Source: an uncultured virus (IMG/VR IMGVR_UViG_3300033069_001311) (lineage: Duplodnaviria > Heunggongvirae > Uroviricota > Caudoviricetes). From it: a stretch of DNA of 64,000 nucleotides. The notes beneath the pieces are model-generated. The model was given only the letters and a program-made list of their open reading frames with translations. It did not search any database and had not been told where the DNA came from. Positions 5,521 through 61,871 of the stretch are shown here, piece by piece; position 1 is the first letter of the stretch, and each line of letters starts with the position of its first letter. Made by a program: the position numbers and the translations under genes. The stretch is from IMG/VR virus record IMGVR_UViG_3300033069_001311. One strand, written 5' to 3'.

Positions 5521-5861
5521 CCACTGACAACTACTGGCGCTTCCGAGGCCGGTGCAAGGAGCTGAGCGAGGCGGCTGTTTCGGAGGACCCAACCTTAACG
5601 CTGGTTCGCGGGCACTACTACTGCCCGATCTGGAACTCGGACGAGGCCCATTGGTGGACAGTACGCCCGGATGGGTCGATCTTCGATCCGACAGCTCTTC
5701 AGTTTCCCTCCGCCGGGCACGGGATCTACACGCCCTTCGATGGTATCGTGACCTGCTCAGAGTGCGGCAGGGAGCTTCCGGAGGCGGAGGCCCACTTCGA
5801 CTCCAACTACGTGTTCTGCTCGAATGCGTGCCACGGGCGCTTTGTGGGGGTGTACGTATGA
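5517..5861 (+). CDS. putative transglutaminase/papain-like protein with C-terminal Zn finger
   Basis: GRC...HWW...DPT triad-like residues; CSEC...CSNAC. Confidence 0.5.
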   Translation: MTTDNYWRFRGRCKELSEAAVSEDPTLTLVRGHYYCPIWNSDEAHWWTVRPDGSIFDPTALQFPSAGHGIYTPFDGIVTCSECGRELPEAEAHFDSNYVFCSNACHGRFVGVYV

Positions 5862-6391
5862 GCCCCATGCGCCCGGCGATCACGCTCCCCCGCCTCGACA
5901 CCTACCCCGGCGCCAGCCCGCAGGGCTGGCTGTGGCAGGTGAAGCTCAACGACGAGCGGGGGATGCTTACGCCCGAAGGGACGCTCGTCAATCGGCTCGG
6001 GCGACCGTTCGCCCCGCACAAGGTCCGCGCCTTCGGTACGGCCTTGGGGCTATTGGAGGCCCAATTCCCCGGGGAGTGGGTCGACATCGCCCTTCTCGGG
6101 TTCCGGGGCGGGTTCCCGGTGGGGAGCATCGTCGTCCTCGACCTGCCCGACCGTCCGGGCGGGTTTGTCGAGCGCATGTCCGCAGACACGGGCACGCTGT
6201 TTCTCCCCGAAGAGGGGGAGGTGGCTCCGGTCGGGCAAATTCTGACGCTCGACTACTACGACAACGCGAAGAGTATTTTCCTCCGAACCATCGGCAAGAC
6301 CGGGTTGGAGGGCGTCATCGGCCGCCGTCCCGGCGTCCGGTACGCAGAAGGGGACAGCCGGGACATGGTCAAAAGTAAGTGGAGATACTGA
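5858..6391 (+). CDS. ATP-dependent ligase-like nucleotidyltransferase domain (no OB domain)
   Basis: WLWQVKLNDER (motif I-like), LEGVIGR (motif IV), MVKSK (motif V). Confidence 0.6.
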   Translation: MSPMRPAITLPRLDTYPGASPQGWLWQVKLNDERGMLTPEGTLVNRLGRPFAPHKVRAFGTALGLLEAQFPGEWVDIALLGFRGGFPVGSIVVLDLPDRPGGFVERMSADTGTLFLPEEGEVAPVGQILTLDYYDNAKSIFLRTIGKTGLEGVIGRRPGVRYAEGDSRDMVKSKWRY

Positions 6392-6733
6392 ATGATAACC
6401 GCAACCAACATCTATCTGTGGGGAATACTCGGTCGGGTCGAAGTCGTCTTGATTCTCGCCATGATCGGGACCGGATTGGCCTCTCTATTCACGACAATGG
6501 CTTGGCTGGTCGAGGGGTTTGATCTGGAGAACCGAGTGCGACTTAAGGTGTACGCCGCATTCGTCGTTTCTATGCTCCTCACGGTCTTCGTCCCCAGTAG
6601 GGAGACGTTCGCCGCCATGTACGTCTTGCCCGCCATCGCGAAGTCCGAGGCGGTGCAGAAGGATCTCCCCGAGGTCTACAGTATGGCAGTCGACTTCATG
6701 AAGAAACAACTCAGCACAAAGGAGACCAAGTAA
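6392..6733 (+). CDS. membrane protein
   Basis: two hydrophobic helices, VPSRETFAAM pattern. Confidence 0.75.
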   Translation: MITATNIYLWGILGRVEVVLILAMIGTGLASLFTTMAWLVEGFDLENRVRLKVYAAFVVSMLLTVFVPSRETFAAMYVLPAIAKSEAVQKDLPEVYSMAVDFMKKQLSTKETK

Positions 6734-6734
6734 C

Positions 6735-6905
6735 ATGCTCGCATCTATCACACTGGAAGACCTCACCATCCCGCAGATGATCGCCCTACTCAAGCGGGCC
6801 GGCGCATTCGCCGCCGACTGGGCGCCGCCCGAAGGGATCGTCTTCCTCGCCCTCTGGGCCTGGATTATGATTCTCATGCTCATGTTCTTCAAGTTCATGA
6901 AGTGA
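6735..6905 (+). CDS. small membrane protein
   Basis: MLASITLE...IVFLALWAWIMILMLMFFKFMK, 56 aa, below ORF-track cutoff. Confidence 0.5.
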   Translation: MLASITLEDLTIPQMIALLKRAGAFAADWAPPEGIVFLALWAWIMILMLMFFKFMK

Positions 6906-6972
6906 CCATCGATCCCGGCGCCGGGCTGTTAGGGTCTGGCGTCGTGGTCGGGAGTCAGGAAAATAGAAAGAT

Positions 6973-7233
6973 ATGAACACGAACATGAACATCACGATTT
7001 CAGACGTCCAGAACGCTAACCTGTTGGGCGAGTTTCATCCGGTTTCCGGAGAATGGTCGCTGCATTGCGATTCCGAGGACAGAAGTAAGGAGGGGGTCGA
7101 ACAGGCAGTTAGGAACTGGATGGATTCCTCGTACCCGGTCCACGTCGAGGTCTACCATGCTGACGGGAGAGCTATTGGCGGGGATCTGCCAAGCGACGGA
7201 ACATTTGTTGCGATCCGCGTAAATTCGCTGTGA
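6973..7233 (+). CDS. hypothetical protein
   Basis: 86-aa ORF after A-rich leader. Confidence 0.65.
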   Translation: MNTNMNITISDVQNANLLGEFHPVSGEWSLHCDSEDRSKEGVEQAVRNWMDSSYPVHVEVYHADGRAIGGDLPSDGTFVAIRVNSL

Positions 7234-7249
7234 ACCGGCAAGGGCTCCT

Positions 7250-7441
7250 ATGAAAATCCTCCCCAACGACATCGAAACCCAGAGGTTATACTGCGACCTG
7301 CTGGGCCAGTACCCCGACACCCTGACTCTGGATGTCCGCGACCCGGAGCGGCCCGACCTTCACGTACCCGGTGGCCGGCTCCCGGTGCCGGGTGGGCTCG
7401 ACGGGCTCCCGGCTCTCATTCGAACAATCTTCGCGACCTGA
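7250..7441 (+). CDS. hypothetical protein
   Basis: 63-aa ORF in operon. Confidence 0.6.
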   Translation: MKILPNDIETQRLYCDLLGQYPDTLTLDVRDPERPDLHVPGGRLPVPGGLDGLPALIRTIFAT

Positions 7442-7444
7442 CCT

Positions 7445-8029
7445 ATGACCAAAAAAGAATACTTCGATGGCCTCGCCCGCGAGATCCGGAACGACTGGTT
7501 CGAGGACCACAAGGCGACTCTCCTTGTCTCCGGCGACGGGACCAAGGTAATCGACTGGCAGAAGCCCGGAACCTGGATCTACGGAATGCGATTCGTGATC
7601 CACAGCCGATGGCTCGCCGTCCTCGGGGATCTGGGCGAGGCCACCTACGAATGGAGTTCGAACATCGACCCGGAGTTCCTCGCCACCCTGAACTTCGACT
7701 ACTTCCTCGGCAAGTGCCGGGCGTCGGAGCATGGGCGAGAGTTCACGGTGTACGAGCCGGATGTCCTTACAACCGAGCTGGCGGAGTACGTGAAGGAGGC
7801 CGACAATGAGGATCGCCTGAGGCTGACCGAGTTGCTCGCTAACCTCGGCGTCTACTGCGATCGGGACGAATGGGTTCAGGCAATCCGCGAGGCGTACGAC
7901 GACGGTCTCCTACGGGACGCCGAGGAGGCGGGCATTGTCGCCAGTCTCGGACTTGTGCCCGACGGCCACGCCATCGCTCACTGGGTCGGGATCAGAATGG
8001 CGTGCCAGCAACTACTGGAGGCCAAATGA
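7445..8029 (+). CDS. conserved phage protein
   Basis: 194-aa ORF, GDLGEA and DYFLGK motifs. Confidence 0.8.
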   Translation: MTKKEYFDGLAREIRNDWFEDHKATLLVSGDGTKVIDWQKPGTWIYGMRFVIHSRWLAVLGDLGEATYEWSSNIDPEFLATLNFDYFLGKCRASEHGREFTVYEPDVLTTELAEYVKEADNEDRLRLTELLANLGVYCDRDEWVQAIREAYDDGLLRDAEEAGIVASLGLVPDGHAIAHWVGIRMACQQLLEAK

Positions 8030-8187
8030 AACTCTCCATCTTCATCCTGTGGCTCCTACCTTGGGGCCTGATCTCGACAACCGTAACCCTATTCGGCCAC
8101 CCGGTAGCCGGCACCATCATCGGAATCGCGTCGCTGGTCGGCGTAATCTTCGTGGTGGCGCTGGCGAGGGCGGCGAAAGGAAACTGA
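8026..8187 (+). CDS. small two-TM membrane protein
   Basis: MKLSIFILWLL..., ATGA-coupled. Confidence 0.6.
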   Translation: MKLSIFILWLLPWGLISTTVTLFGHPVAGTIIGIASLVGVIFVVALARAAKGN

Positions 8188-8543
8188 TGAACGCCACCAA
8201 TCTATTCGCCGCAACGAGTCTGCTGATTCCGCAGGTCTGCGACAAGCCGAAGCCCGAGTGGCCGTTCCAAAACCACCCTGGATTCTGGATCGAAGCGAAC
8301 TGGACTTCGTTCCGGTGGGCGGCTGGGTACCAATACAGCTTCGATCGACCCAGAATCAACTTCGCCAGATACTCCGGGCCGTGGCTCAGTACAATCCCTG
8401 CGGTCGCTGCAAGTCTCCGAGAGTTCGCCCGGACCAATAAGATCGTGACTGAGTCGGGCAGTGCGTTACTGGGCGGGCCAACGAACTATTCCGCGTTTCC
8501 TAACTGCATCTTTGTAACGATCGACTCCCATGAGAACCCTTAA
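8187..8543 (+). CDS. hypothetical protein
   Basis: MNATNLF start coupled via TGATG. Confidence 0.6.
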   Translation: MNATNLFAATSLLIPQVCDKPKPEWPFQNHPGFWIEANWTSFRWAAGYQYSFDRPRINFARYSGPWLSTIPAVAASLREFARTNKIVTESGSALLGGPTNYSAFPNCIFVTIDSHENP

Positions 8544-8772
8544 AGAACGACTGGCTGAAGCCCGAGTTCTATTGACTGATGACTACACGGTCTTGGCTTC
8601 CCGGTTGTTCGAGGTTCCTGCCGAGGGCGTGACCCCGGAGATGCGGCGACGGGCCAAGCTAGTGAGTCTTGGCTTGGCCTACCAAATGACCGAAGCGAAC
8701 TTAGCCAAAAACCTAGGCGTGTCCGAGGATGAAGCTTCCCGGATCGCCACCAAAGCGAAAGGACTCCTGTGA
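8530..8772 (+). CDS. small protein resembling the DNA polymerase A fingers (O-helix/motif B) subdomain
   Basis: DDYTVLASRLFEVPAEGVTPEMRRRAKLVSLGLAYQM...LAKNLGVSEDEA matches Pol I R-x3-K-x3-(F/L)G-x2-Y region. Confidence 0.7.
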   Translation: MRTLKERLAEARVLLTDDYTVLASRLFEVPAEGVTPEMRRRAKLVSLGLAYQMTEANLAKNLGVSEDEASRIATKAKGLL

Positions 8773-8912
8773 AAAAAGCGACAGTCTGCAAAGACCGCAC
8801 TGGATATTGGGTGGCATTCGCCCACGACACGAACTCGAACATCGGAGGGTTCTACAACTCCGAGCTTGCGGCGTATAAGGCGGCGAACGCGGCGGGATAC
8901 CTCGTGGCTTGA
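8769..8912 (+). CDS. hypothetical small protein
   Basis: GTGA-coupled 47-aa ORF (KKATVCKDRTGYWVAF). Confidence 0.5.
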   Translation: MKKATVCKDRTGYWVAFAHDTNSNIGGFYNSELAAYKAANAAGYLVA

Positions 8913-8917
8913 ACTAT

Positions 8918-9091
8918 ATGAGAACGCTTAAAGAACGACTGGCAGAACTCCGCCAAATCGAAAACCCAACCCCGGAAGATTTCGAACGGCTCTGGCAACT
9001 GGCGGAGGATCAGGACGATGAGATTGACAGGCTCCAAGACCGGCTCCTCGTCCAAGAAGAGGGGTACACACCTTACGTGGGGGAGCTATGA
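8918..9091 (+). CDS. hypothetical coiled-coil protein
   Basis: starts with the same MRTLKERLAE as the 8530 gene. Confidence 0.65.
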   Translation: MRTLKERLAELRQIENPTPEDFERLWQLAEDQDDEIDRLQDRLLVQEEGYTPYVGEL

Positions 9092-9219
9092 AATGGCCCC
9101 CCGTAGCTGAATTCTTAACCGCAGCCCTCGCCCTGAACCTGTGCGTGGATGCTGGACGTAAAGTTGTCAGGTTCGTGCTTGACGCAACAACCAAAATCTC
9201 GGAGAAGAACACACCATGA
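9088..9219 (+). CDS. hypothetical small protein
   Basis: ATGA overlaps on both sides (MKWPPVAEF). Confidence 0.45.
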   Translation: MKWPPVAEFLTAALALNLCVDAGRKVVRFVLDATTKISEKNTP

Positions 9220-9542
9220 AAACGCTGACTGCAACCATCGGAAATGAAACGGACTCGGACTACCACGAGTACCTCGCCCGCGTAAATGCGCGGTTCCTGA
9301 GAAATACGGAAGACGGCGCCCCGCTCTTTACGACGGACGCCGAGGACCTGTGGGAAACCTACCTCGCGAACTTCGAGGACCCCGCCGTCCGCCAACACCA
9401 CAACTGTCACGCCTGTCGGAAGTTCATCGAGACCTTCGGGGGGCTGGCGACAATCGACGAATCCGGGAGCCCGGCGCCCGCGATCTGGAACCCCGAGGAT
9501 GCGCCGGAGGAGTGCCTCCCGGCGAACCAACGCCCGCAGTAA
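9216..9542 (+). CDS. conserved phage protein, probably N-terminal fragment
   Basis: LFTTD...LW..YL..F...RQHHNCHACRKFI..FG motif. Confidence 0.6.
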   Translation: MKTLTATIGNETDSDYHEYLARVNARFLRNTEDGAPLFTTDAEDLWETYLANFEDPAVRQHHNCHACRKFIETFGGLATIDESGSPAPAIWNPEDAPEECLPANQRPQ

Positions 9543-9565
9543 TCCTCTACCCCACATACTAACCC

Positions 9566-10360
9566 ATGAAACTACACCCCGAACACCCAGCCATAAAGAT
9601 CATCCGGTTTCCGGATGGGCAACCCCACATCCGGCTCGACACCAAACTCCTCGAAGGGGTCCAGGACGTCGACGTCACTTGGCGAATCCGGAACCCCGAA
9701 GAACTCTACCTCTTGGCGTGCCTTCATGACGCGCTCGAAGAAGCCGAGCTACGAATCCGCGACCTCGTCATCCCCTACCTCATGGCCGCCCGGTCCGATC
9801 GGGTCATGGTGCCGGGCGATGCGCTGGGGTTGCGCGTGGTCGGCCACGTCTTAAGGGCCGCGATGCAGTACAAAAATCTCTTCGTTCTCGACCCCCATTC
9901 GAGTGAAGTATTCAAGTGGGTGTTCTGGTCGCGAACGCTTTCGAGCGACTTCCTGCTGGCCGGTATTCACGCCGACGCCCTCGTCCTTCCAGATAAAGGG
10001 TCGCGGATCCATGCGAACCGCCGGAAAGAGATCCTTCGGGCGTCCCGTGAAATCCTCTGTGAGAAGCAACGAGACATGCGCACGGGCGACCTGAAGCTTG
10101 TCGTCACGAACCCCGAAGCCGGAATCGGTAAGGACGTCGTGATCGTCGACGACATCTGCGACGGCGGCGCCACGTTCCTCGCCATCGCCGAACAACTTCC
10201 GGGTGTCCGGAGCCTGAAGCTCGTCGTGACGCACGGGATCTTCTCAAAGGGATTCGGGGATCTGGCCCCCGCGTTCCATCAAATCATCTGCTCGGACAGC
10301 TATGCCAGCAGTTACCCGAACCAACCCTCGAACCTGACCATCATTCCCTGCAACCTGTGA
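9566..10360 (+). CDS. ribose-phosphate pyrophosphokinase-like protein (NARP1 Adps-like)
   Basis: FPDGQ, PYLMAARSDR, DPHS, VIVDDICDGGATF, VTHGIFSKG. Confidence 0.9.
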   Translation: MKLHPEHPAIKIIRFPDGQPHIRLDTKLLEGVQDVDVTWRIRNPEELYLLACLHDALEEAELRIRDLVIPYLMAARSDRVMVPGDALGLRVVGHVLRAAMQYKNLFVLDPHSSEVFKWVFWSRTLSSDFLLAGIHADALVLPDKGSRIHANRRKEILRASREILCEKQRDMRTGDLKLVVTNPEAGIGKDVVIVDDICDGGATFLAIAEQLPGVRSLKLVVTHGIFSKGFGDLAPAFHQIICSDSYASSYPNQPSNLTIIPCNL

Positions 10361-11799
10361 ACACATCCGCCCTCCACTTCACCGACTTCTACAAGGTCGG
10401 CCACGTCTTCCAGTACCCGCCCGGGACTGAATACGTCTACTCGAACCTCACGCCCCGATCCTCGCGGATTCCCGGCGTCGATCACGTCGTCCACTTCGGG
10501 ACGCAACACGCCCTGCGCCGGATCTCGGATTCCTTCGAGGGCACATTCTTCCAGCGCCCGCTACGGGTGGCGGTCGAACTCTATAAGGAGCGGACGATGG
10601 CGGCCCTCGGCGCACTCCCAAGCTACCACCACATCGGCGCCCTGCACGACCTCGGGTACCTGCCGATCGAGATCCGGGCGCTCCCAGAGGGCGCCCTCGT
10701 CCCGCTCCGGGTGCCGGTGCTGACGATTCGGAACACGCACCCAGATTTCGCCTGGGTAACGAACTTCATCGAGGGCTGGCTTTCCTGTAGCCTGTGGCAG
10801 CCCTGTACGTCGGCGACCATCGCCTACCAGTACCGGAAGAGTCTGGACAAGTACGCCCTACTGACCGGCATGGACCCCGGGTTCGTCGACTACCAAGCTC
10901 ACGACTTCAGCTTCCGGGGCATGGGGAGTCTGGAAGCCGCAATCGCATCCGGAATGGCGCACCTGACGTCCTTCCGCGGGACCGACACGATGGTCGCCAA
11001 CGACTACCTCGTCAACCACTACTACGCCACGAACTCGGAGTTGGGAGTCAGCGTCCCGGCGACGGAGCACAGCGTCATGTGCGCCGGGGGCGACGACGGG
11101 GAGGAGGAAACCTACCGCCGGCTGATCGAGGACGTCTACCCCAAGGGCATCATCTCGATCGTGTCGGATACTTGGGACCTGTGGGGCGTACTCACGGAGA
11201 CCCTCCCGGCCCTAAAGAGCAAGATCATGCGCCGGGAGGGGAAGCTGGTGATCCGCCCGGATTCCGGAGACCCGGTCAATATCCTGTGCGGCGACCCGGC
11301 GGCCACGGGGCCGGCGAGGAAGGGCGTCGTCGAGGTCCTCTGGGACACGTTCGGGGGCACCCTCACCCCGACCGGGCACCGGCTTCTGGATTCCCACATC
11401 GGCGCCATCTACGGCGATTCGATTACGCTCACCCGGCAAGATGAAATCTGCCGCCGGCTCATGGAGAAGGGCTTCGCGAGTCAGGTTGTGCTCGGGGTGG
11501 GGAGCTACACCTACCAGTACAACACCCGGGACACGTTCGGGTTCGCCGTGAAGTCGACGGCAGTCCGGATTAACGGCCAATGGAAGCCGATCTTCAAGGC
11601 GCCCAAGACCGACGACGGGACGAAGAACTCGGCACGAGGATTCCTGCGCGTGGAAATTGAGGACGGCGACTACGTTCTCCGAGACAACGTCGAGGACTTC
11701 GAAGGCGGAGAGCTGGTCCCGATCTGGCGAGACGGCCGGTTCCTGCAAGAGACGACGATCTCGCAGATTCGGGCGCGGCTGAGGAGGGCGACGCCATGA
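10357..11799 (+). CDS. nicotinamide phosphoribosyltransferase-like protein (NARP1 Namat-like)
   Basis: TDFYKVGH, HDFSFRG, PATEHSVM, SDTWD, IRPDSGDP, IYGDSIT, YQYNTRDT. Confidence 0.92.
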   Translation: MNTSALHFTDFYKVGHVFQYPPGTEYVYSNLTPRSSRIPGVDHVVHFGTQHALRRISDSFEGTFFQRPLRVAVELYKERTMAALGALPSYHHIGALHDLGYLPIEIRALPEGALVPLRVPVLTIRNTHPDFAWVTNFIEGWLSCSLWQPCTSATIAYQYRKSLDKYALLTGMDPGFVDYQAHDFSFRGMGSLEAAIASGMAHLTSFRGTDTMVANDYLVNHYYATNSELGVSVPATEHSVMCAGGDDGEEETYRRLIEDVYPKGIISIVSDTWDLWGVLTETLPALKSKIMRREGKLVIRPDSGDPVNILCGDPAATGPARKGVVEVLWDTFGGTLTPTGHRLLDSHIGAIYGDSITLTRQDEICRRLMEKGFASQVVLGVGSYTYQYNTRDTFGFAVKSTAVRINGQWKPIFKAPKTDDGTKNSARGFLRVEIEDGDYVLRDNVEDFEGGELVPIWRDGRFLQETTISQIRARLRRATP

Positions 11800-12209
11800 A
11801 CCACAACGAATTCGCCAACGAACTGTTCGACCGAGACATCGTGGTCGATAAGATCGTCTGGCTTGCCGCGACCTGCGCGAATCCACCTCCGGCCTTGGCG
11901 GACCTGTATGAGGACGATCCCGAAACGCTGGCGACACTTCTCGGAGTCGACCAGAATCTCGATCTGGACGAGATGTTGCAGCGTACGAAAAACCTAGGGT
12001 TCCTGCTCGATGTAAGGACGCCGGTTCGCCGATACTGGAAGCCCGAGGACCCGGAGAGCCCCTACGAATCAGGCTGGGGGCTGATCCACACAGACTGGAT
12101 CTATACCGAATCTCTGAGTCTGCTCGATGCACTGACGAAGCTCGTCGCTTGGGCGGAAGGCAAATCCCAACTTGACCGAGAGCGGCGCTATTCTACACCC
12201 TCAACCTGA
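11796..12209 (+). CDS. hypothetical protein
   Basis: 137-aa ORF coupled to the NAMPT-like gene; last gene of + block. Confidence 0.75.
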   Translation: MNHNEFANELFDRDIVVDKIVWLAATCANPPPALADLYEDDPETLATLLGVDQNLDLDEMLQRTKNLGFLLDVRTPVRRYWKPEDPESPYESGWGLIHTDWIYTESLSLLDALTKLVAWAEGKSQLDRERRYSTPST

Positions 12210-15200
12210 CCCGTCGCACCCGGCGCCCGGCGCTCCGACGCCGAGCCAGGAAGCTAGGCCTACGACCGCGACGACCACGCCCCCGGGAGGAAGAGACCCT
12301 TCCCCCGGGGGTTCTCTTTACCGGCGTCTCCATGGCCGGCGTGGGGGCGAAGGACCTCATACCTTCCGGCGGGCGCTCGGAGATGACCTGCACCGCCCGC
12401 GCCCGCTGATTCATCGCCTCCCGGACCTTGGGCCCGAGCAAGGGCTGGAGCTTCCGGTATTGCTCCTCGGTAATAGGTCCGCCGACGGCATCCCGAATCG
12501 GGTCGAGGGCGACCAGAAGCCCCTTGACCGCCTGCTCCCCGGCGCTCTGTGCCTGCTCCGGCGACTCGCCCTTCTCGACCGCCTTGTTGTACGCCTGCCG
12601 GAAGGCGAACCCGGTGATGTTACGCATGCCCTCCTCATCCCCGCGGCGGGCCGCCTCCCGGAGCGCCTGCTCTTTGGGCGTCGGCGCCAGCCACGAGCCG
12701 AACTTCGGCGGCTTGCTGGGTTCCAGCCCGATCTTCCGCGCCGCCTCGACGATCTCCGACTTAACCTGCTTCGAGACAACGGCTTCCGGGTTCGCCATGT
12801 TGTAGACGAACTGGCCCGCCATCGAGAAGACCGACAGAACCTTGCGCGTCCCCTCCTTCAGGTCCGCCTTCGCCCCGGCCTGACCCTCCGGCCCCATGTC
12901 GTGGGCGATCGTCCACCCGGCTTGGCCAACCTGGGACAAGCCTTGTCCTACGGTCGACAGGATTCCCACGGCGGGAAGCCGGGGGTTCTCCAGGTCGAGG
13001 CCGACGCCCTTCGGCACCGTGAAGGCGATGTCCTTGAGGATCTCGGTCGGACTCTGCCCCCAGAAGGACATGTCGAGCGGGGTTGGTTCGCCCGTCGGGG
13101 GCGGAGTCTTCATGGCGCCGGCAACCCGAGCCGCGGCATTGAATACGAGCGGGGCGCCCGGAACGTGTTCCCGGATCAGCCCACTGAGCCGGGTGAGTGC
13201 GTCCAATAGCCCCTCGTCGTCATCGTCGTCCAGCCCCATGAGGATCTGCTGAATCGCTTCGGCGAGCTGGGTCTGGCCAGCCTGCGCCGAGCGCCGGGCG
13301 ATGGTCGACCAGTAGGCGGAGATGGCGGCCAACGCCATCCACGACAGGGTGCGAAGCGTCGTCTGGGAGATCTTCTTCAGGCGCCCGTCGTCCGGAACCG
13401 TGCGCGAGTCGGCGGCGATCTGGTTCACCATGTTCACCGTCCATCCGAGGAGCGACAGAAGCGGGTTGCTGGTCGGTCGGTTCCCGCGGGTGGCGGCGTT
13501 GACCTGCGACAGGATCGAGGACCCAATGGTGGCGCCCAGCTCCGAACGCCAGAAGGTTCGGACCGGAACTGACTGGATATTCTGCAACACCACTTCCGGA
13601 TTTCCAAATGTCCCGAGGAAGTCGCGCAGGGTGGCGGAACCTCCGACGTCGGCGTCGGTCAGTAACGTTAACGGATTCGCCGGATCGTAGGCCAGACCCT
13701 CCCGGGCCAGCCGGGACTTCCAGACGGCGGCGATCCGCTTCATGCGCCAGATGATGGGCGGCACCATCGTCCGAGCGATGTACCGGTTGAGCACCGAGTC
13801 ACCCAGCCTGACGCCGACCCGCTCTGAAATGGCGTTCGCCGCCTCCTGCCCGGCCTGCGAGATCCGCGTCCCCAAGCCGCCCGTCACCTCGCCCCGGCTC
13901 CAGGCTTCCGATTCGCCCAGCTCCGCCCGGCTGTAGCTGCCCAGAATCCCGGCGCCCTCAAGGTAAGCCTGAAGCTCCTCCGGCTCGGAGAACTTCAGTC
14001 CCATGCCCTGGCCCAGCGCCATGAGTCGGTCGTACGCGAAGTGCATCGGGCTCCCGACGATCATGTCGGCGACGGCTCGGGCGGTCGAGACGCCGGTCCC
14101 GAGGAACGGACGATTGACGAACCGACCAGCCCACGGACCGGAGACGATGTTCGCCACCGCCGGCCCGGTCCACATGAGCAGGTGCGGGATGACGTTCGAG
14201 ATGCCACGCTGGACGCTGGAGTGCCACGCCTTAGCCGGCGCCTGGATGGACGCGATCTCGGCGGCGAGCCGGTCGGCCCGGAGCTTCATGTTCTTGACCG
14301 CGGCCTGCGCCCGGACCTTGTCGATGTTCGTCCCGCTCCAATCGGAGTTCGTGTGCCAGAGGATGTCGCCCCGATACTTGGCGAAGACGGCGGCCTTCTC
14401 AATCTCCGGCAACGTCTGGGCCTCGGCGATGGCGGTGGCAATCGTCCGGAGTTCCTTCGCCGACTCTTGGAGGGCGGTCAGAAACTCGACCTGCGCCGCG
14501 TCGCCCGTGCGTTCGAGGAACGCCTGCAAACTGTCGGACATCCCGTACGTGTACCACGAAGACGGGAACATGAGCGGGGCGGCCGACTGAGTGAACTCGG
14601 TCAGGTCCGACTCGCCGAACGCCTCGATCGCGGACGTTTTGGCGGACGTCCCGGTCTCCGCCGGCACTCGGGCCGCGGCGATCCGGGCGTAGCCTTCCAG
14701 TTCCTTGAGTAGCTTGCCCCGCACCTCCGCCCGGGTCAGCCCGGACTCGGCGGTCAGGAGCGAGACGGCCTCGTCGAGGGTCCTCGGGGCGGGCGCACCT
14801 TGGAAGATTCGATTGGCGATCCGTTGCTCCGCGGCGATCAGGTCACCGTCACGCTCGACGCCCAGGTCCGCCCGACCACTGTCGAGGATGTGCCAGAGCA
14901 AGCCTTGCTGCGACTCAGCGGAGTCCCAGAAGGCGGCGATTTGAAGCGGGTCCTTGGTCCGATAGACTTCGGCGAGGCGCTGGTAGACGGCGGGGCGAGG
15001 GAGGCGGGCCAGACCGAAGTCGCCCGTCTCGCCCGGCCGGCGCACGACACGCTCGCCCGGAAGCTGGACCCGGACGCCACCGTACGGACGCCGAAGCTCT
15101 TCCGCCTGTGCCTCGCGGCCCACGGCGCGGTCATTCCGGAGGAGGTTGAGCAACTCCGGCGTAATAGTGCGGCCGGGGAGGGAGATGAGCCGGTCGCCCA

Positions 15201-18200
15201 CGCCGAGCCCGGAGCTGAACTGGCGGCCCACCCGGTGGGACACCTCATTGCGTGCCCGCTGAAGGAGCGCCGGGTCGCCCTCATTCCGAAGATCCAGCCC
15301 GAGGCTTTCGGCCGCGGCGATCATGAGTTCCCGGTTCTTCCGGACGTGCTTGCGGGTGAGCTTGTCGATGACCTGCCCGGCCTTGACGTAGCCCGCCAGC
15401 TTGGCCTTGAGCCGGCGCCCCTGGACCCCAGGCACCAGCTTCGATAGGGTTTCCCGGGTCCCGATGTTGAGCCAAAGGGTGAAGGGCGAACCACCGGTCC
15501 GGTCCATGCCACGGGTCGGGGCGATGGTCGAGGAGATTTGATCCCGGGTAAATTTCGCGTCGATGTAGAAGTCCGTCATCGGCACGGCGACGCGGAGCCC
15601 CCGGGTAACCGGCTCCGGGTTCGAGCCGGCGGCGACGGCCTCCTCCGCATTGCGTTGCCAGTCAACGAGCTGGGTGAGCAGGTCGCCCGTATATTCCTCC
15701 CCCGGAAGGAGTCGGATCGCCGGCTGCTCGGAGCCGTCGGCCTTCGTGAATTCCCGGAACAGGACGCCGCCGTCGTTGGCATCGTAGACCATCTCGGTGG
15801 CGCCGGTCTCGGGCGTCGGGACCTCCGTGGCCCCGGCGTCGCGGAGCATCTCCAAGGCAACCCGGCGACCTTCGAGCTGGGAGATGTCCTGCTCGACACC
15901 GGTCAGAGCGTCGATCGCCCGGCCCCGGGCGCGGACGAACCGGGCGATGGCGGGGGCGGCGGCTTCCGCCGACCCGCCCTGCTCGACGCCGCGAATGGCG
16001 GCCAGCGCAGACTCGGTAATCGACCGGTCGACCGCACCGTACGCTTCGACCACCGCATTGCGCCGGCCGTCCGACTCCCGGATCAGGTCGACGAGGCGAA
16101 CGGTCGCATCGACGGAGATCCCAGAGGCGGCGGCGACTGCTCGCAGGTCCGCTTCGTCGGAGTCGAGGCGACGAAACACCCGATCCCGGAACCGGGCGAC
16201 TGCGCTGTCAGGGTCAGCCTGCGCCAAGGCGACGATGAACCGGCGAAGCTGCTCGTCGTTCTCCGCCAAGAACTCGGCCGTCGCCCGGTCCTCGGTCGAG
16301 CCGGAGAGACCCATGACGCCGCGGAGGGAAGCCAGAATCTCGCCGACGGCGACATGCGCCCGGACCCGGTCGCCGGTCAGGTCCTCCAGGCGAGTCCGCA
16401 GGGCACGCAGGCGCTCCGGGTAGGTCGTCGACATGAAGTCGTCATAGACCTGCGCCGTCCGCTTCTGGAACGGGCGCCACGAGAGGAAGAGGGTATCCCG
16501 AGCCACCTCGGCGGCGTCGGCCAAGTTGCCGCTCGCTTCCTGCGGCGTCGCTCCGGACTGCTCGATCCGTTCAACGATCTCAAGCCACGCCTGGATCTGC
16601 GGGTCGAGCATCACCATCTGCGCGGCGCGGGATTCCCACTTCCGGGCAGCGTGAAGGCGAAGGTCTCCGGCTCGGGCGAGGGCGCCGGGATCCGCTTCGG
16701 CGATCTCCTTCCGGAGCGCCGCCAGCCGGGCGAGGTCTTCGGTCCGATCGAAATTCGGGGCGGACCGCTCCAATTGAGAGAGCAGTTCGGTGAGGTCGTC
16801 GATGGCGTCGAGCGTCCGGACTAAGTCGCGGGCCTCGGCCTCAAGCCTGAAGGCCGCATGGAGCCGCTCGTCCGCATCCGTCGTCGGGATGTCGGCCGCC
16901 CGAAGATCCTCGATGAACGTCTCGGACCGCGGGTTCCACGGGCGCTCGACCCCGGCGCCGATGTCCCGAGCCCGGCCGGAGTCGCCGAGCGCCCGCATCC
17001 GGTTGCCCATATTCCGGAAGGCTTTCTCGTCCTCCGCCGCGAACCGTTCGTCGATCGCTAGATTCCGAAGCCGGTCGACGATGGGCTTGGCGTAGGCCCA
17101 GACCGCATGGTTCAGGTTCGCGTAGACCTGCGCCGCCGGGGTCGCCCGGCCACCGGCAAGGTTCTCGGGGATCTCGTAAGCCGCGAGAGTGGTCCGGGCG
17201 AGTCGTTCAAGATTCCTTGACAACTCGTCCGTAGGCGACAGGCGAAGCCTCCGCATCCACTTTCGGACCCACGGCCGGAGCCGGGATTCCTGACCCTGAA
17301 GCCGGAGCACCTCGCCCAAGATGGAGCGCTGTCCCTCGGGGGTCTTCGGGTTGGCGGCGAGGCGTTCGGCGATCCGGGCGGTACCGACGGGGTCGGTCTC
17401 CCGGAGCATGGCGTAGGTGTCGGCGACGAAGGTCGGGCCGAAGACATCGAGCCCAGACTCGACGAGGGCCGAGACGATGGCTGAGCGTGCCGACGCCGGG
17501 TTCCCGGAGAGGTCGGGGGCGGAGACAACGATGTTGGAGCCGTCGTAGTAGGCACCCCGGGGATCGGGCGGGCCCTCGATGATTGGCGGGGCGGACGGGA
17601 ACTCGGCGCGGATTGAGTCGACAATCTTCGGGAGCCGGTCGGGGGCGAGGGAGAAGCGGGGAGTCGATTGTCGGAGACTCCCGGTCGAAAGCAGTCGGCT
17701 CTTCTGCTCGTCCGTCAGCGACGGGTCGGACCGAATCGCTTCCTGCACCGAAGGGTTGCCCAAGTCAACGTCGTTTAGTATCCGCTTCGGGTCCATGCCC
17801 CGGCGTACCATTTCCTCCCGGGCCCACTCCGGGAGATTGTTCCGCTGTGCCCCGACGACGTCGAGACTCTGCCGACTCTGGCCCCCGCTCTGGCCGCCAG
17901 TCCTCCGCAGATTCCGGAGCATGAGCCGCGACTCGACGAGAGCCGAGAGGATGGTGGCACGGGCGGCTGCCGGGTTGCCGGGCAGGTCGCCGGGCGAGAC
18001 AACGATGTTCGCGCCGTCGTAGTAGGCGCCCCTCGGGTCGGGGTCTCCGACGATGATCGGCGGGGCGGAGGGGAACTCCGTGCGGATGGAGTCGAGTAGG
18101 GTCGTGGCCTTCTCGGGAGAGAGGGAGAAGCGAGGCGTGCTCGGAGCTTCTGCGTATAGGCCGTCTTGCGAAGGCCGGTCATAGGTCTCAGCTTGCCCGG

Positions 18201-50415: not shown

Positions 50416-50490
50416 GGCGGGGTGGAGCATCGGTAGCTCGGCACCCTCATAAGGTGAAGGTAGCTGGTTCAATTCCAGCCCCCGCCCCCA
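50416..50490 (+). tRNA. tRNA with CAT anticodon (Met-type)
   Basis: GGCGGGG/CCCCGCC acceptor, GAGC/GCTC D-stem, CT-CAT-AA loop, GCTGG-TTCAATT-CCAGC T arm, CCA. Confidence 0.88.
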
Positions 50491-50495
50491 TTTTT

Positions 50496-50744
50496 GTGGA
50501 GCAGTTCAACGACAACCTACTGGCGCACGTGGAAAGCCCGTGGCGCCCGGAGTGGGCGACGGATTGGGATGGGTGGGAGGATGAGCCGGTTCCGGTCGAG
50601 CAGTTCGCGCAGGAGCACGAACGCGAAGAGCGGTGGGTTCCGGCCATAAGCCCTGCCGACCGAGACGGTCTCATGGCGCAAGCGATCGAAATCATTGACT
50701 GCGCCTGGATGTCGAAGTATCTTCCAGTTCCTCCCGCCCCATAG
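50496..50744 (+). CDS. hypothetical acidic protein between tRNAs
   Basis: GTG-started ORF (EQFNDNLL...) filling the gap between tRNAs. Confidence 0.45.
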   Translation: MEQFNDNLLAHVESPWRPEWATDWDGWEDEPVPVEQFAQEHEREERWVPAISPADRDGLMAQAIEIIDCAWMSKYLPVPPAP

Positions 50745-50749
50745 GCGGT

Positions 50750-50799
50750 GCCCGCCATCAGACGTAAAGCCTACGGGGTTGTCTGGTCGCGGGCTTTTT
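50750..50799 (+). terminator. long hairpin with UACG tetraloop followed by T-tract
   Basis: GCCCGC-CATCAGAC...c(TACG)g...GTCTGGT-C-GCGGGC-TTTTT. Confidence 0.5.
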
Positions 50800-50802
50800 G
50801 TA

Positions 50803-50877
50803 GGGGTCGTGGTGCAATGGCTAGCACACCGGATTTTCACTCCGACGATCCGGGTTCGATTCCCGGCGGCCCTACCA
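50803..50877 (+). tRNA. tRNA-Glu(TTC)
   Basis: cloverleaf, TT-TTC-AC loop, CCGGG-TTCGATT-CCCGG, CCA. Confidence 0.9.
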
Positions 50878-50882
50878 GTTTT

Positions 50883-50956
50883 GGGCGGATGGTGTAATGG
50901 TAGCACAGCAGACTTTGATTCTGCTGGTACAGGTTCGATCCCTGAGCCGCCTGCCA
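50883..50956 (+). tRNA. tRNA-Gln(TTG)
   Basis: GCAGA-CT-TTG-AT-TCTGC anticodon arm, TTCGATC T loop, CCA; one mismatch each in acceptor and T stems. Confidence 0.85.
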
Positions 50957-55455: not shown

Positions 55456-55790
55456 CCACCACCCCCAAACCCACGGTGGATTACCTAGATCCATCGAGCC
55501 AAGAACGTATCGAAGGCTCGGTATATCGAGTCGGCACAGTCGCCTACGAACGGGGCGGAACGTACGTGTTCGGTCGCACCCTTCGCCGGATGGCCCGTCT
55601 GTCCGGGCCGTTCGACCTGCTCAAAGAGGACGCGTCCTTCATCGGGGCCGACGAGACGTTGCGGCGAATTGAAAACCTCGATTCAGTGGACGACGGCTTG
55701 TATCGGCTGTCTACCACGAATGAACAGACGGACTGGGAGACCGGAACTCTCGATTCGTACGACTATCTCCTCGTGCCGTACAAGCCATGA
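55452..55790 (+). CDS. hypothetical protein
   Basis: 112-aa coupled ORF. Confidence 0.7.
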   Translation: MTTTPKPTVDYLDPSSQERIEGSVYRVGTVAYERGGTYVFGRTLRRMARLSGPFDLLKEDASFIGADETLRRIENLDSVDDGLYRLSTTNEQTDWETGTLDSYDYLLVPYKP

Positions 55791-57115
55791 TCGCCACCCC
55801 CAAACCCTGGCAACCGCCCGTAATCGAGGCGATGGCTGACGCTCTGGCCGCCGGCAAGTCGTTCGGCGACTTCAGTGACACCGGGGTCGGGAAGACCTAC
55901 TCAACCTGCTTCGCCTCGGTCCGGGCCCGCGTCCGGTTGGGGGTCAGTTGCCCCATGTCCGTCATCCCAAGCTGGATCGAAGCGGCCGAGCGGACCGGCG
56001 CCCGGCTCTCCTTTGTGGGCAACATCGAAGCCCTCAAGGCGGAAGGCAACCAACTCCGGCGACTGGGAGCCCACAAATGGCATTGGGCTCTGGATTCCGA
56101 TGTCCGGCTAGTCTTCGACGAGGCGCACCGGTTCAAGCACTCGACTACCCAGAACGGGAAGATCCTTCGGGACGCCCCGCGCCCGGCGATCCTGCTCTCG
56201 GCTACGCCCTTCAGCGGGCCCCACGAAGCCTGCGCCATCGGGCACCAGCTTGGGCTCTTCCATTGGAACGACTTTGAATCGTGGGCCGGGCAGCATGGGT
56301 GCAAGTACGGGCAGATGGGCGGGCTCGACTTCGTCGGGCTGGTGCGGAAACCTAGGGACTGGGTCGGCACCCCGCGGCAATGGGCGGAAGCCTGCGAGCT
56401 GGAACGCCGGGCAATCCTCGACCGAATCCATCGCCAGATTCATCATACCGGTCGCGGAATCCGGATTCGGAAAGCGGATCTGGGCGACCTGTTCCCGGCG
56501 ATTACGCGGGAGACGGTCCTACTTCCAGCCGAGGACGGCGATGCGATAGACGCCGCGTACTTCGAGGAGTTGCAGCGGCTCAGGAGCGAGGCTCCGAGTG
56601 GCGGCGTCGAGTTCCTGCGTGCCCGGCAGATGTCGGAGTTTCTCAAGGTCCCGCATCTGATCGAGATGACGCGGGACCAGCTGGAGGGCGGCCAGAGCGT
56701 CCTGCTCTTCGTCAATTTCCGGGACACCTTCGACCGGCTCGTAGAGGCGTTCCCCGGGTGCGCTCGGATCTACGGCGGGCAGGATCTTGAGGGCGTTCCC
56801 CGCGAGGGTGAGCGGCTCCGGTTCCAGCGCGACGAGGCCCGGGTCATGGTCGCCATGATTCAGGCCGGCGGGATCGCATTATCGGCGCACGATTTGAATG
56901 GACGGTTCCCGCGGACCTCGTTCATTCTGCCGGGAGTCTCGGCGGAGCAGGTCATCCAGGCGGATGGCAGAGACCACCGGGCCGGCGGACTGACGCCAGT
57001 TTTGCACAAGTACTGCTACTCCGACTGTAGCTTCGAGCGAAAGCTCCGGGCGAAGTTGGAGACCAAAATAAACAACATCGAGCTTCTGCTCGACGGAGAC
57101 CTGATACCAGACTGA
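55787..57115 (+). CDS. superfamily 2 DNA helicase
   Basis: DTGVGKT, DEAH, LSATP, QADGRDHR. Confidence 0.9.
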   Translation: MIATPKPWQPPVIEAMADALAAGKSFGDFSDTGVGKTYSTCFASVRARVRLGVSCPMSVIPSWIEAAERTGARLSFVGNIEALKAEGNQLRRLGAHKWHWALDSDVRLVFDEAHRFKHSTTQNGKILRDAPRPAILLSATPFSGPHEACAIGHQLGLFHWNDFESWAGQHGCKYGQMGGLDFVGLVRKPRDWVGTPRQWAEACELERRAILDRIHRQIHHTGRGIRIRKADLGDLFPAITRETVLLPAEDGDAIDAAYFEELQRLRSEAPSGGVEFLRARQMSEFLKVPHLIEMTRDQLEGGQSVLLFVNFRDTFDRLVEAFPGCARIYGGQDLEGVPREGERLRFQRDEARVMVAMIQAGGIALSAHDLNGRFPRTSFILPGVSAEQVIQADGRDHRAGGLTPVLHKYCYSDCSFERKLRAKLETKINNIELLLDGDLIPD

Positions 57116-57125
57116 GGATACCATT

Positions 57126-59186: not shown

Positions 59187-59188
59187 TT

Positions 59189-59917
59189 ATGCCTGTATTG
59201 TCATTCGACGGAGTCGGAGCCGCAGCAACCGCCGCCTCCACCGCAGTTGTTCCGGTCGCCGCGGCGCCGGTTACGAAGTACGCCACCCCGGCGTCCCAGA
59301 TCGAAGGCGATTTGAGCGGGACGACCGTTCCGATTCCGTACCTCGCCCTCACCCAGAAGGCCTCTGGCGTGGTGGATGAGCATCCGGAATGGATGGGGAA
59401 GTGGTGTTACGATAAGACCACCATCGTCGGCTTGCCCGCCGACCCGAAGCAGTATTCGACCGAGCTGACCCGGGGTCTCGGTAAGGACTCCGTGCTCGGG
59501 ATCGTGACGAAGGTCAAGGTCGGGTATGAAGAGAAGGTGGAGTTCGACTCCGGGATCATCCCCGACCGCTGGAGTTCCGCCGCGGAGGCGCGGGCGAGCG
59601 GGAAGGAGTACCAGGAGGTCGGCACCATTGACGTGCTGTTGGCCTTCGACGGGGACCATGAGCAGATCCGGTTGGTGGGAGGATTCCAATTCCTTCCGGC
59701 CCGACTGATCGTGAAGAAGAGCGCCTACCGCAACGTCGCGGGGGCGATCGTCCGGGACTGCTCGACATGGTTGCACGGCGATACGTGCTCGGGATGGTAC
59801 GAATTCGCGGTGAATAAGATCACCGGGAAGCAGACGTACTGGAGTCCGGTGGCCAAAGGTGCCGGAAAGGTGTCGCCGGAACTCCGCGAGGCGATCCGGA
59901 ACGAGTTCGGGGTCTAA
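59189..59917 (+). CDS. putative ssDNA-binding protein
   Basis: IPYLALTQKAS pattern; between nuclease and polymerase; strong codon bias. Confidence 0.55.
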   Translation: MPVLSFDGVGAAATAASTAVVPVAAAPVTKYATPASQIEGDLSGTTVPIPYLALTQKASGVVDEHPEWMGKWCYDKTTIVGLPADPKQYSTELTRGLGKDSVLGIVTKVKVGYEEKVEFDSGIIPDRWSSAAEARASGKEYQEVGTIDVLLAFDGDHEQIRLVGGFQFLPARLIVKKSAYRNVAGAIVRDCSTWLHGDTCSGWYEFAVNKITGKQTYWSPVAKGAGKVSPELREAIRNEFGV

Positions 59918-59929
59918 GGGTTCATGCCG

Positions 59930-59959
59930 CCCGGGGTGGGGTCGCCCCGGGTTTCTCTT
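59930..59959 (+). terminator. rho-independent terminator
   Basis: CCCGGGGTG-GGGT-CGCCCCGGG then TTTCTCTT. Confidence 0.65.
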
Positions 59960-59961
59960 CT

Positions 59962-60045
59962 ATGGGATATGCAACCATCGTCATGATCGGAACTATCGTC
60001 TTGATTATCGGGACGATCCTGTACGCCAACCGGAAGAACCTGTGA
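59962..60045 (+). CDS. small membrane peptide
   Basis: MGYATIVMIGTIVLIIGTILYANRKNL, GTGA overlap with polymerase. Confidence 0.45.
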   Translation: MGYATIVMIGTIVLIIGTILYANRKNL

Positions 60046-61871
60046 TAACCGCGAACCCCGACTCCCCGAGCGGCGCCGTCGCTATCGACTTTGAAACCTC
60101 CTACGAGGTCGGTCGGGACATCAAATCCCTCGGCATGGTCCCCTACCTCCGGCACCCGGAGACGGACGTCTACATGGTCTCGATCTACGGCGAGGGCGTC
60201 GAATACGTCGGGCCGCCGGAGACCGCACCTTGGGACCAGATCGCGAACCGCCCGTGGGTGTCCCACAACATGCAGTTCGATCGGGCGGTCTACGACGAAC
60301 TCCGGCGTCGGAGGTCGGGATTCTATCCGGCCACTCCAGATGAATGGGACTGCTCCGCGGATCTGGTCGCCGCCATGCAGTGCAAGCGATCCCTCGCGGA
60401 CGCCATGTTCATCCTCGAAGGGCACCGGGTCGACAAGACCGTGCGCGACGAGATGAAGGGGGTCGCTTGGAAGGACCTGGATGACGTTGGTCGGGCTCGG
60501 GTGTCCGAATACGCGATTCTGGATGCCAAGTACTGCTCCCACCTGTGGGACAAGTATTCCTCGAATCAGCCGGAGTTCGAGCGCCAGCTCTCGCGCCACA
60601 CCGCCCGGATGTGCCACCGGGGCCTTGCCGTCAACGAGGCGAAGGTCTCCTCCGGGATCGACATCCTCGCCGACCGTCTATTCCAGGTCGAGAAGCTGAT
60701 CCCGTGGGCCGGCGAGCTGAACGAGAAGGGGAAGGAGATTCCGATCACGTCGAGCAAGGCGATAGCCAATGAGTGCCGGAAGCTTGGGATCCCGCCCCCG
60801 GCATCAACGGACGTGAAGTCCGCCCTATGGGACCGGTGGGAGGAGCAGTACGCGGAACAGGCGCCCTTCGTAGGCGCCATTCAGAAGTACCGGAAGATCA
60901 ACCGGGTGCTCGGAGTCCTGAAGTCAATCCGGACTCGGACGGTCGGCGGGATCTGCTACTACGAGCTGAAGTACTGCGGGGCGCCCCATACCCGGCGCTG
61001 GAGCGGGGGCTATGAGTATGAGTCAAGGTCTGAGTCAAGCTCTCTCAACATCCAGAACCTCCCGAAGGACGAGGTCGAAGGCGTCGACGTGCGCTCGTGT
61101 TTCATCCCGCGCCCCGGGCACCGGTTCGTGGTCTCGGATCTGCGACAGATCGAGGCCCGGGTGATCCTGTGGATGGCGGGGGAAGAGGGGATCTTGGCCC
61201 CACTCCGACTCGGCGCGGATCTGTACGACTCCTACGCCCGCACGGCGATGGGCTACCGGGACCCGCGACCGCTTGCCGAGGTCGATAAGGGGCTCCGGCA
61301 ATTGGCGAAGACTCACTGGCTGGGACTTGGGTACGGGATGAGCGCCGGCAAGTTGCAGGACACGGCCCGGAAGTACGGGAGCACCATCTCGGCGACGGAG
61401 GCAGAGATTGCCGTCAGCACTTTCCGTCGGGGTGTCCCGAGGATCAAGGCGAACATCTGGGACCCGATCAAGTCGAACCTCTCCCGGTTCGAGGTGGACG
61501 GAAAGGTGGAATTTGTGTTGCCTTCCGGTCGGACAATCCGGTATTTCGGAGTCCGGCGCGACGGCTTTGGGTTCTCCGGCTGTACCGTCCGCGGCGATCC
61601 GGAGAAGAACCTGTGGTTCGGCCTTGTTACCGAGAATGTGGTCCAGGGGACGGCGAGGGATGTGTTCGGCACCCGGATTCTGGACCTGGAGCAGAGCGGG
61701 TTCCCGGTGGCCTTCCACGTTCACGACGAAGCGATCAACGAAGTATCCGAAGAGGACATCGAATGCAAGGCAATGGAGATCAACAGGATCATGTCGACAG
61801 CTCCGGATTGGGCTGCGGGGCTCCCGGTGTCGAGCGGGACGGATGTCATGGACGCCTACTGCAAAAAGTAG
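60042..61871 (+). CDS. DNA polymerase family A with 3'-5' exonuclease
   Basis: IDFET, HNMQFD, YAILD; motif A DLRQIEAR, motif B RQLAKTHWLGLGYG, motif C HVHDE. Confidence 0.92.
   Translation: MITANPDSPSGAVAIDFETSYEVGRDIKSLGMVPYLRHPETDVYMVSIYGEGVEYVGPPETAPWDQIANRPWVSHNMQFDRAVYDELRRRRSGFYPATPDEWDCSADLVAAMQCKRSLADAMFILEGHRVDKTVRDEMKGVAWKDLDDVGRARVSEYAILDAKYCSHLWDKYSSNQPEFERQLSRHTARMCHRGLAVNEAKVSSGIDILADRLFQVEKLIPWAGELNEKGKEIPITSSKAIANECRKLGIPPPASTDVKSALWDRWEEQYAEQAPFVGAIQKYRKINRVLGVLKSIRTRTVGGICYYELKYCGAPHTRRWSGGYEYESRSESSSLNIQNLPKDEVEGVDVRSCFIPRPGHRFVVSDLRQIEARVILWMAGEEGILAPLRLGADLYDSYARTAMGYRDPRPLAEVDKGLRQLAKTHWLGLGYGMSAGKLQDTARKYGSTISATEAEIAVSTFRRGVPRIKANIWDPIKSNLSRFEVDGKVEFVLPSGRTIRYFGVRRDGFGFSGCTVRGDPEKNLWFGLVTENVVQGTARDVFGTRILDLEQSGFPVAFHVHDEAINEVSEEDIECKAMEINRIMSTAPDWAAGLPVSSGTDVMDAYCKK

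Follow-up and report, generated by a model that had tools for sequence, protein, structure and literature searches.

Small phage ORFs that encode only part of the fingers of a family A DNA polymerase are among the closest counterparts of the 80-codon frame considered here, hereafter ORF80. In the Pectobacterium phages CX5, CX5-1 and PPWS2, a 60-aa ORF of the early region corresponds to helices N-O only, and the fingertip block of CX5 and PPWS2 is a stretch of 200 nt that is 95.5% identical across two genera and flanked by unlike sequence. The pN/pS of this pair is 0.40, from only 5 and 4 changes. Further examples are phrog_38792, a 62-aa family matching the same polymerase region as ORF80, and six proteins of 55-137 residues among the 50 BFVD matches listed for the ORF80 model, some of them from Acinetobacter and Maribacter phages (E 0.009-0.23, individually weak). 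Together these ORFs form a descriptive, not curated, class of fingertip mini-ORFs (~55-140 aa, only the helix N-O region, at a distance from the polymerase gene of the phage), which ORF80 fits. Like the others, it is a small early helix N-O ORF with the own polymerase elsewhere; unlike them, it reaches through helices O1 and O2, takes its start from a neighbouring gene and is without relatives of its own. When the CX5 ORF (16/35 residues identical to ORF80) and phrog_38792 (25.5 bits for ORF80, 20-27 bits for six other short PolA pieces) were compared with it, no specific kinship beyond generic PolA similarity was found. As the other mini-ORFs are no more similar to ORF80 than polymerases are in general, they are regarded as parallel cases and not as one family. 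About 1 kb downstream of its fingertip ORF (L011:3557-3778), CX5 carries a 73-aa ORF ending in ...KDMTFGLRYG..., by eye a second motif B-like string.

Two other kinds of phage gene resemble ORF80. Split or intron-interrupted phage PolA genes also contain a separate small PolA piece, with the break near motif B. PHROGs 6982, 2573 and 10285 are partial polymerases that begin at or pass the motif B region, and a match in Pseudomonas phage PMBT3, considered as a possible stand-alone excerpt, proved to be an ordinary split PolA of adjacent 120-aa and 267-aa pieces (gp061 and gp060). In these cases the pieces adjoin and together make one enzyme, whereas ORF80 is without a partner and the complete PolA lies 51 kb off. 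Mosaic-junction and moron-type ORFs, which arise by illegitimate recombination in phage genomes, share with ORF80 a repeat-bounded insertion, a chimeric frame and lineage-specific presence. ORF80 differs from them in that its piece is a recognisable substrate-binding element of an essential enzyme and recurs in other phages.

The DNA analysed, called the window, is a stretch of 64,000 nt of tailed-phage sequence with 62% G+C that contains a terminase gene, structural genes and three tRNAs. The features on which the comparison depends are the following:

5552-12209, + strand: block of small genes that includes ORF80
8187..8543, + strand: upstream ORF of 118 aa, no family match, overlapping the start of ORF80 by 14 nt
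8530..8772, + strand: ORF80, ATG start, 80 aa, with a borrowed 10-codon start, a Pol I-type fingers excerpt and a 6-residue tail
8530..8559, + strand: direct repeat copy 1 (repeat search), the first 10 codons of ORF80, MRTLKERLAE
8557..8751, + strand: segment homologous to family A polymerase fingers, ORF80 residues 10-74 (profile, alignment and fold comparisons)
8769..8912, + strand: ORF47, 47 aa, with a GTG start that shares bases with the stop of ORF80 (GTGA); it makes up the latter half of the repeat-bounded 388-bp unit
8918..8947, + strand: direct repeat copy 2 (repeat search), identical to copy 1 in 28/30 nt
8918..9091, + strand: conserved small gene of 57 aa, whose family natively begins MRTLKERLAELRQI; donor or twin of the ORF80 start
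59859..61871, + strand: complete family A DNA polymerase of the phage itself, 670 aa, with motifs A, B and C and Leu at 762

Match of ORF80 to the fingers of bacterial-type Pol I

An earlier note on this DNA had described the 80-aa protein as a stand-alone excerpt of the PolA fingers (O helix) and had named a profile search as a way to check it. The peptide that it quoted is found exactly in ORF80, and the profile search returned the PolA match: ORF80 residues 10-73 align with positions 178-241 of the 381 in Pfam DNA_pol_A (PF00476) with an E value of 1.2e-12 and 47.9 bits, which is above the gathering threshold (34.3). The NCBIfam Pol I equivalogs are matched at positions 684-749 of 889 (E 2e-12), their full-length cut-offs being missed (NF004397, 46.5 bits vs 720; TIGR00593, 45.2 vs 600). 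In phmmer searches of the PDB the best chain is 6vdc_A (E 1.6e-10; ORF80 residues 16-70 on 407-461), the sister entry of which, 6vdd, is titled M. smegmatis Pol1, and Klenow chains match at 409-463 (E 2.8e-5). Judged by these scores, the match to polymerase motif B is real and far above chance. It covers only the fingers helices N, O, O1 and O2. ORF80 thus shares with the bacterial-type Pol I fingers (PF00476, TIGR00593/NF004397) both homology at an E value of 1e-12 and the residues R39, K43 and Y51, but it represents 65 of ~900 residues and has no palm, thumb or exonuclease.

Residues were compared in a set of 154 relatives picked by similarity to ORF80 and hence biased towards it. In this set, ten of the 13 columns with a consensus of at least 90% are kept in ORF80 (A11, D17, A23, F27, R39, K43, G48, Y51, L58 and A69) and three are altered (F to R12, H to Y19 and G to Q52). 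The altered His is present in 147/149 relatives and the altered Gly, directly after the Tyr, in 154/154. Moreover, S46 replaces the consensus N, and L47 occupies the Phe762 site, which is F or Y in 150/154 relatives. According to PMC6302109, Leu at 762 is a common state among viral PolA proteins. The claim that the R, K, G and Y of motif B are kept therefore applies to R39, K43, G48 and Y51, but the motif has changed at the Gly after the Tyr (Q52) and at the Phe762 site (L47).

The AlphaFold2 model of ORF80 consists of five helices, at residues 4-15, 18-26, 36-50, 55-62 and 66-79. The last four correspond to helices N, O, O1 and O2, respectively, with R39, K43, L47, Y51 and Q52 assigned to helix O. 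The pLDDT is 87 with an alignment and 83 without one. Foldseek matches the model made with the alignment to the Pol I fingers of Bst, Taq, Klenow and M. smegmatis; 57-62 residues superpose with a deviation of ~1 A, and the query-normalised TM score is ~0.7. This agreement is partly circular, because the alignment fed to the model consisted of polymerases.

The phage's own PolA contains motif A, the O helix and motif C (HVHDE), all within one frame, and it is a distant relative of ORF80, with 20/67 HMM-aligned residues identical and a BLASTP E value of 0.07. The top database matches, in contrast, are 34-57% identical to ORF80, which bears out the earlier view that it is closer to bacterial Pol I than to the PolA of this phage. 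Five long matches (898-917 aa) bear the 5'-nuclease Pfam domains of bacterial Pol I. The low identity to the own PolA and the higher identity to bacterial Pol I show that ORF80 was not copied from the phage enzyme. A kinship of the two through the rare residues Y19, L47 and L14 was also considered and dismissed, since agreement in 3/18 rare-state columns is at about chance level. Among 1.84 billion representatives, the polymerase closest to ORF80 is ~50% identical, and this in the most conserved part of the enzyme. No donor polA was found (best identity ~50%) from which the capture could be dated.

The excerpt stands apart from any other polymerase sequence. In tblastn searches with 51 full-length Pol I proteins, alignments at ORF80 sometimes continue beyond its stops on both sides: upstream, the same-frame string 'PIRS*LSRAVRYW' is aligned to the PNLQNIPIR motif, and the downstream extension passes the TGA. 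Such a PIRS-like stretch (SSPGPIRS*LSRAVRYW) can be read through two stops in the + frame of ORF80 at 8410-8529, where its tblastn partner, PNLQNIPIR...IR.AF, lies at roughly the right distance. It sits within the upstream 118-aa ORF, in a different frame, and the profile tests give it no backing. When the region around ORF80 was translated with stops read as X, no extra Pfam match appeared in any + frame, and with an HMM derived from these 51 Pol I sequences, matches at the locus were limited to model positions 679-737. Sub-profiles of the flanks, comprising the 89 positions before and the 123 after the motif B segment, were run against all six-frame 100-aa pieces of the window and recover the own PolA of the phage; at ORF80, the upstream piece is outside the top 25 and the downstream piece is 7th, with an E value of 7. 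The tblastn extensions were thus taken as chance and a decayed polA beside ORF80 was rejected. Neither motif A (DYSQIELR-type, with its catalytic Asp) nor motif C (HDE, with the second catalytic Asp) is present in ORF80 or its flanks, motif A having been sought in all frames. Likewise, no second polymerase piece is found in 7900-9300 or elsewhere in the window, bar the complete PolA at 59859-61871. Since the Pfam, Pol I HMM and sub-profile tests of the flanks are all negative, the excerpt is considered isolated, and the earlier statement that no palm motifs A or C flank it stands. Having no palm (motif A or C), the product is non-catalytic and unable to polymerise.

Coding context and chimeric start of ORF80

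Several signals suggest that ORF80 is a gene. Under a codon model for which 17 long genes of the window served as training set, its frame scores +0.19 and the other five frames -0.21 to -0.84; the neighbouring small genes score +0.04 to +0.60 and a 100-aa antisense ORF -0.34. On the + strand, ORF80 belongs to a block in which small genes of early type are closely spaced; its stop (TGA) and the GTG of ORF47 overlap, and a Shine-Dalgarno-like AAAGGA for ORF47 is found in its last codons. The start context, 'ctccc ATG', is like that of other genes of the phage. Most phage genes here are without a Shine-Dalgarno sequence and several begin after '...ccc ATG' (the terminase at 52541, and 35300, 33225, 9566 and 8530). 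Such starts hint at a host with initiation independent of this sequence. The public gene call at the locus is a 66-aa form from a TTG start at 8572 (P0001), and no promoter, terminator or Rfam signal stands out around ORF80. The start context, the packing and the stop/start overlaps argue that ORF80 is translated, probably within an operon and as an 80-residue mini-protein, with the caveat that overlaps and start context would pass to any frame located behind the old start of the 57-aa gene.

The start of the 57-aa gene is present twice, as a direct repeat. The two 30-nt copies are 388 nt apart, each begins exactly at an ATG and each codes for MRTLKERLAE. Both differences between them are synonymous third positions (chance about 0.10). 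At up to 3 mismatches the repeat has 2 matches in the window and 0 in 100 shuffles, and the stop of the upstream 118-aa ORF (8541-8543) falls inside copy 1. The 57-aa gene at 8918 has six homologues of 51-60 aa with 75-91% identity, and the N-terminus is native to this family, as 7/7 members begin (M/MT)RTLKERLAELRQI, the family start being MRTLKERLAE. Only residues 1-14 of ORF80 align with the family, 11/14 being identical; the 34 invariant positions common to the 7/7 members have no counterpart in ORF80 beyond residue 12, and no similarity over the full 57 residues was found. A relation between the 8918 family itself and PolA was discarded (hhalign probability 0.3%). The first 10-12 codons of ORF80 are therefore those of the neighbouring family, and from ~residue 10 it is Pol I-like; on sequence comparison, it is a chimera of a duplicated neighbour-gene start and a Pol I-type fingers excerpt. 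At the junction both parents read L-x-E-A (RLAEL vs the polymerase consensus LIEAF), so that microhomology at this point is plausible.

The 388-bp unit between the repeat starts consists of ORF80 and ORF47. For ORF47, no family match, nuclease or DNA-binding families included, was obtained in Pfam, PHROG or NCBIfam, and its look-alikes in the atlas all score below 0.9. An AP2-like DNA-binding pattern was an impression by eye to which no tool lent support. The repeat and the N-terminus native to the 8918 family together indicate a cassette of ~360 bp, comprising the polymerase excerpt and the 47-aa ORF, joined to a duplicated gene start.

Searches for relatives of ORF80 returned the protein itself. 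This was the outcome of a word-based search for proteins of near length, and an exhaustive phmmer search of 1.84 billion representatives gave 388 matches at E <=1e-3, of which only ORF80 itself is below 1e-10. No copies were found in IMG/VR, JGI metagenomes or INPHARED DNA, and INPHARED gave no match to the phage DNA or to the terminase protein. IMG/VR yielded no relatives with the 194-aa, 119-aa and 57-aa neighbours and PolA, and JGI metagenomes none with the 8918-family alignment. Matches of this alignment in GTDB genomes and IMG/VR were 17-31 residues long, without synteny, and judged spurious. Short database matches to ORF80 (56-102 aa) were not accepted as stand-alone genes either, being singletons, mostly on short contigs, and possibly broken polA. 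In four sequencing runs from three other studies, contigs with pieces of the same phage are present at low depth and show only identical sequence; no RNA run is among those listed for the phage. Two contigs, both of one study, span the 5' junction of ORF80 and are free of differences, and neither a cassette-free joint nor an ORF80 variant was seen in the contigs of the four runs. ORF80 is accordingly a singleton in the databases searched. The earlier note had named a singleton with decayed polA beside it as the observation that would speak against its proposal: the singleton is what was found, the decayed polA is not.

By-product or selected mini-protein

What would have produced such a locus, and whether the product does anything, can be explained in several ways. 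The leading reading, to which about an even chance is assigned, is that ORF80 is a chimeric cassette gene made by recombination and a young, neutral or weakly selected by-product. Repeat copy 1 would be the original start of the 57-aa gene, and a foreign piece of ~360 bp would have been joined behind the 5' end of this conserved small early gene. The piece would consist of an in-frame excerpt of a Pol I-type polA (helices N-O-O1-O2) followed by the 47-aa ORF. The second 30-nt copy at 8918 would keep the 57-aa gene whole while the copy at 8530 would give ORF80 its start and first 10 residues, and the product would be a five-helix, 80-residue mini-protein; any activity of it would lie in imitating the polymerase fingertip without catalysis. 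In favour of a by-product are the start taken from a neighbour, the singleton status and the fact that an excerpt in its native frame is open without selection, as well as the position of the cassette between repeats, which makes it deletable. The main rival, somewhat short of even in probability, is that ORF80 is a selected fingertip mini-protein, a non-catalytic mimic belonging to a recurrent class that reuses the Pol I helix N-O hairpin; it could hold the triphosphate of a dNTP or pyrophosphate by R39, K43 and Y51, or offer a polymerase-like surface as a decoy or competitor. A function is favoured by the recurrence of the class (CX5, CX5-1 and PPWS2, the 55-137-aa BFVD proteins and phrog_38792), by the triphosphate-binding triad and the fold, both of which are kept, by ORF limits that span this fold almost exactly, and by the synonymous repeat differences, which carry a chance of about 0.10. 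The AlphaFold2 model is confident even without an alignment (pLDDT 83), 10/13 conserved columns are kept, ORF80 is packed and coupled with its neighbours, and the excerpt of CX5/PPWS2 type is a discrete 200-nt module with 95.5% identity between two genera. However, ORF80 has no homologue and hence offers no measure of conservation or dN/dS, its start is borrowed, and the other mini-ORFs resemble it no more than any PolA does (16/35 to the CX5 ORF). Moreover, no part of PolA is as conserved and as easily recognised as motif B, so that the recurrence may reflect biased detection, and the CX5/PPWS2 pN/pS of 0.40 comes from only 5 and 4 changes. The duplicated neighbour start under ORF80 is equally compatible with a selected gene and with a product of recent recombination. 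In all, by-product and selected function are given similar odds, with at most a slight lead for the by-product. Of the 'domesticated fragment' proposed earlier, the fragment is retained, as a Pol I-type excerpt unlike the own PolA, whereas domestication is not borne out by a singleton that permits no dN/dS and has a chimeric start.

The remaining explanations carry little weight. It is improbable that ORF80 is a remnant of flanking exon that a homing endonuclease or intron, once seated at motif B of a polA gene, brought to this site, with ORF47 as the decayed endonuclease. Phage PolA is often split near motif B (PHROGs 6982, 2573 and 10285; PMBT3), an HNH endonuclease gene is located ~0.9 kb upstream of the PPWS2 mini-ORF, and the ORF80 cassette is bounded by direct repeats; but ORF47 matches no family of nucleases or DNA-binding proteins, a search of 7500-9800 against Rfam returned neither an intron nor any other RNA family, and the ORF80 locus holds no second polymerase piece. 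Very little credence is given to ORF80 as a non-gene, an untranslated open frame recently cut from coding sequence. An excerpt in its native frame is stop-free by construction, ~1 in 10 random 80-codon frames at this GC stay open by the authors' estimate, the opposite strand is also open for 100 aa and the public call uses the 66-aa form P0001. Nevertheless, the start context is that of bona fide genes, ORF80 overlaps both neighbours, and its frame has the sole positive codon score of the six, the antisense ORF standing at -0.34. Even less probable, and the least so of all, is that ORF80 is part of a split polymerase that works with the PolA of the phage or with another piece: split PolA genes do exist in phages, but here motif A, the O helix and motif C of the own PolA all lie in a single ORF of 670 aa and no further PolA piece lies near ORF80.

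The roles suggested for ORF80, as a decoy, a nucleotide binder or an inhibitor of the replisome, may be entertained because stand-alone excerpts recur in other phages. According to PMC11348598, escape mutations to the defences Borvo, AbiQ and DarTG map to phage DNA polymerases, which makes the decoy idea for ORF80 a legitimate one. A bolder proposal, less likely than not, is that ORF80 is a working member of a set of repeatedly evolved early mini-proteins built on a non-catalytic O-helix hairpin, which would sequester or sense dNTPs or pyrophosphate, or present a surface that blunts a defence or host factor recognising family A fingers. If this were true, the birth of such a gene, by fusion of a polA excerpt to the start codon of a neighbour, could be seen at this locus.

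Neither the fingers domain nor the occurrence of gene fragments in mosaic phage genomes is new; what is new is the form seen here, stand-alone and with a borrowed start. Targeted full-text literature searches, which reached mostly the abstract level of the papers, found no description of a stand-alone polymerase fingers protein in phages. Should the neutral reading be true, ORF80 is a clean example of how phage mosaicism makes frames, in which a foreign excerpt gains a start through a 30-nt duplication. Should the functional reading be true, an independent case is added to the class of polymerase-fingertip mini-proteins. It would point to a use without catalysis for the element that family A polymerases conserve best, possibly in conflict with polymerase-sensing defences. 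Under either reading, ORFs like ORF80 should not receive the label 'DNA polymerase' from annotation pipelines.

Other genes of the window

Downstream of ORF80, the small-gene block continues with a 108-aa protein at 9216-9542 (+) that carries an HHNCHAC motif and matches phrog_1735 (E 2.8e-16). Relatives 47-65% identical to it are present in 5 IMG/VR contigs, none of which carries another early gene of the window. At 9566-11799 (+), ~800 nt downstream of ORF80, two genes overlap by 4 nt. The first encodes a ribose-phosphate diphosphokinase-like protein of 264 aa (TIGR01251, E 9e-21, below the cut-off) and the second a nicotinamide/nicotinate phosphoribosyltransferase of 480 aa (NF006629, E 4.7e-154, above the cut-off; Pfam NAMPT_N and NAPRTase). 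The two form an NAD+ salvage pair of the phage, which may serve against defences that deplete NAD. At 12193-21096 (-), an ORF of 2967 aa converges on the early block; no Pfam or PHROG family matches it at the thresholds used, the only signal being a sub-threshold HTH_33, and its product may be a giant protein that is part of the virion or is injected.

In the distal part of the window, three tRNA genes (Met-CAT, Glu-TTC and Gln-TTG) are found at 50416-50956 (+), on the strand opposite to the neighbouring terminase. The replication block at 55787-61871 (+) comprises a helicase (phrog_62), a DUF2800/PD-(D/E)XK nuclease (phrog_69), a 242-aa ORF and the Leu762-type PolA. This block agrees with the arrangement that PMC6302109 describes as 'Leu762 with RecB-like and SNF2-like helicase'.
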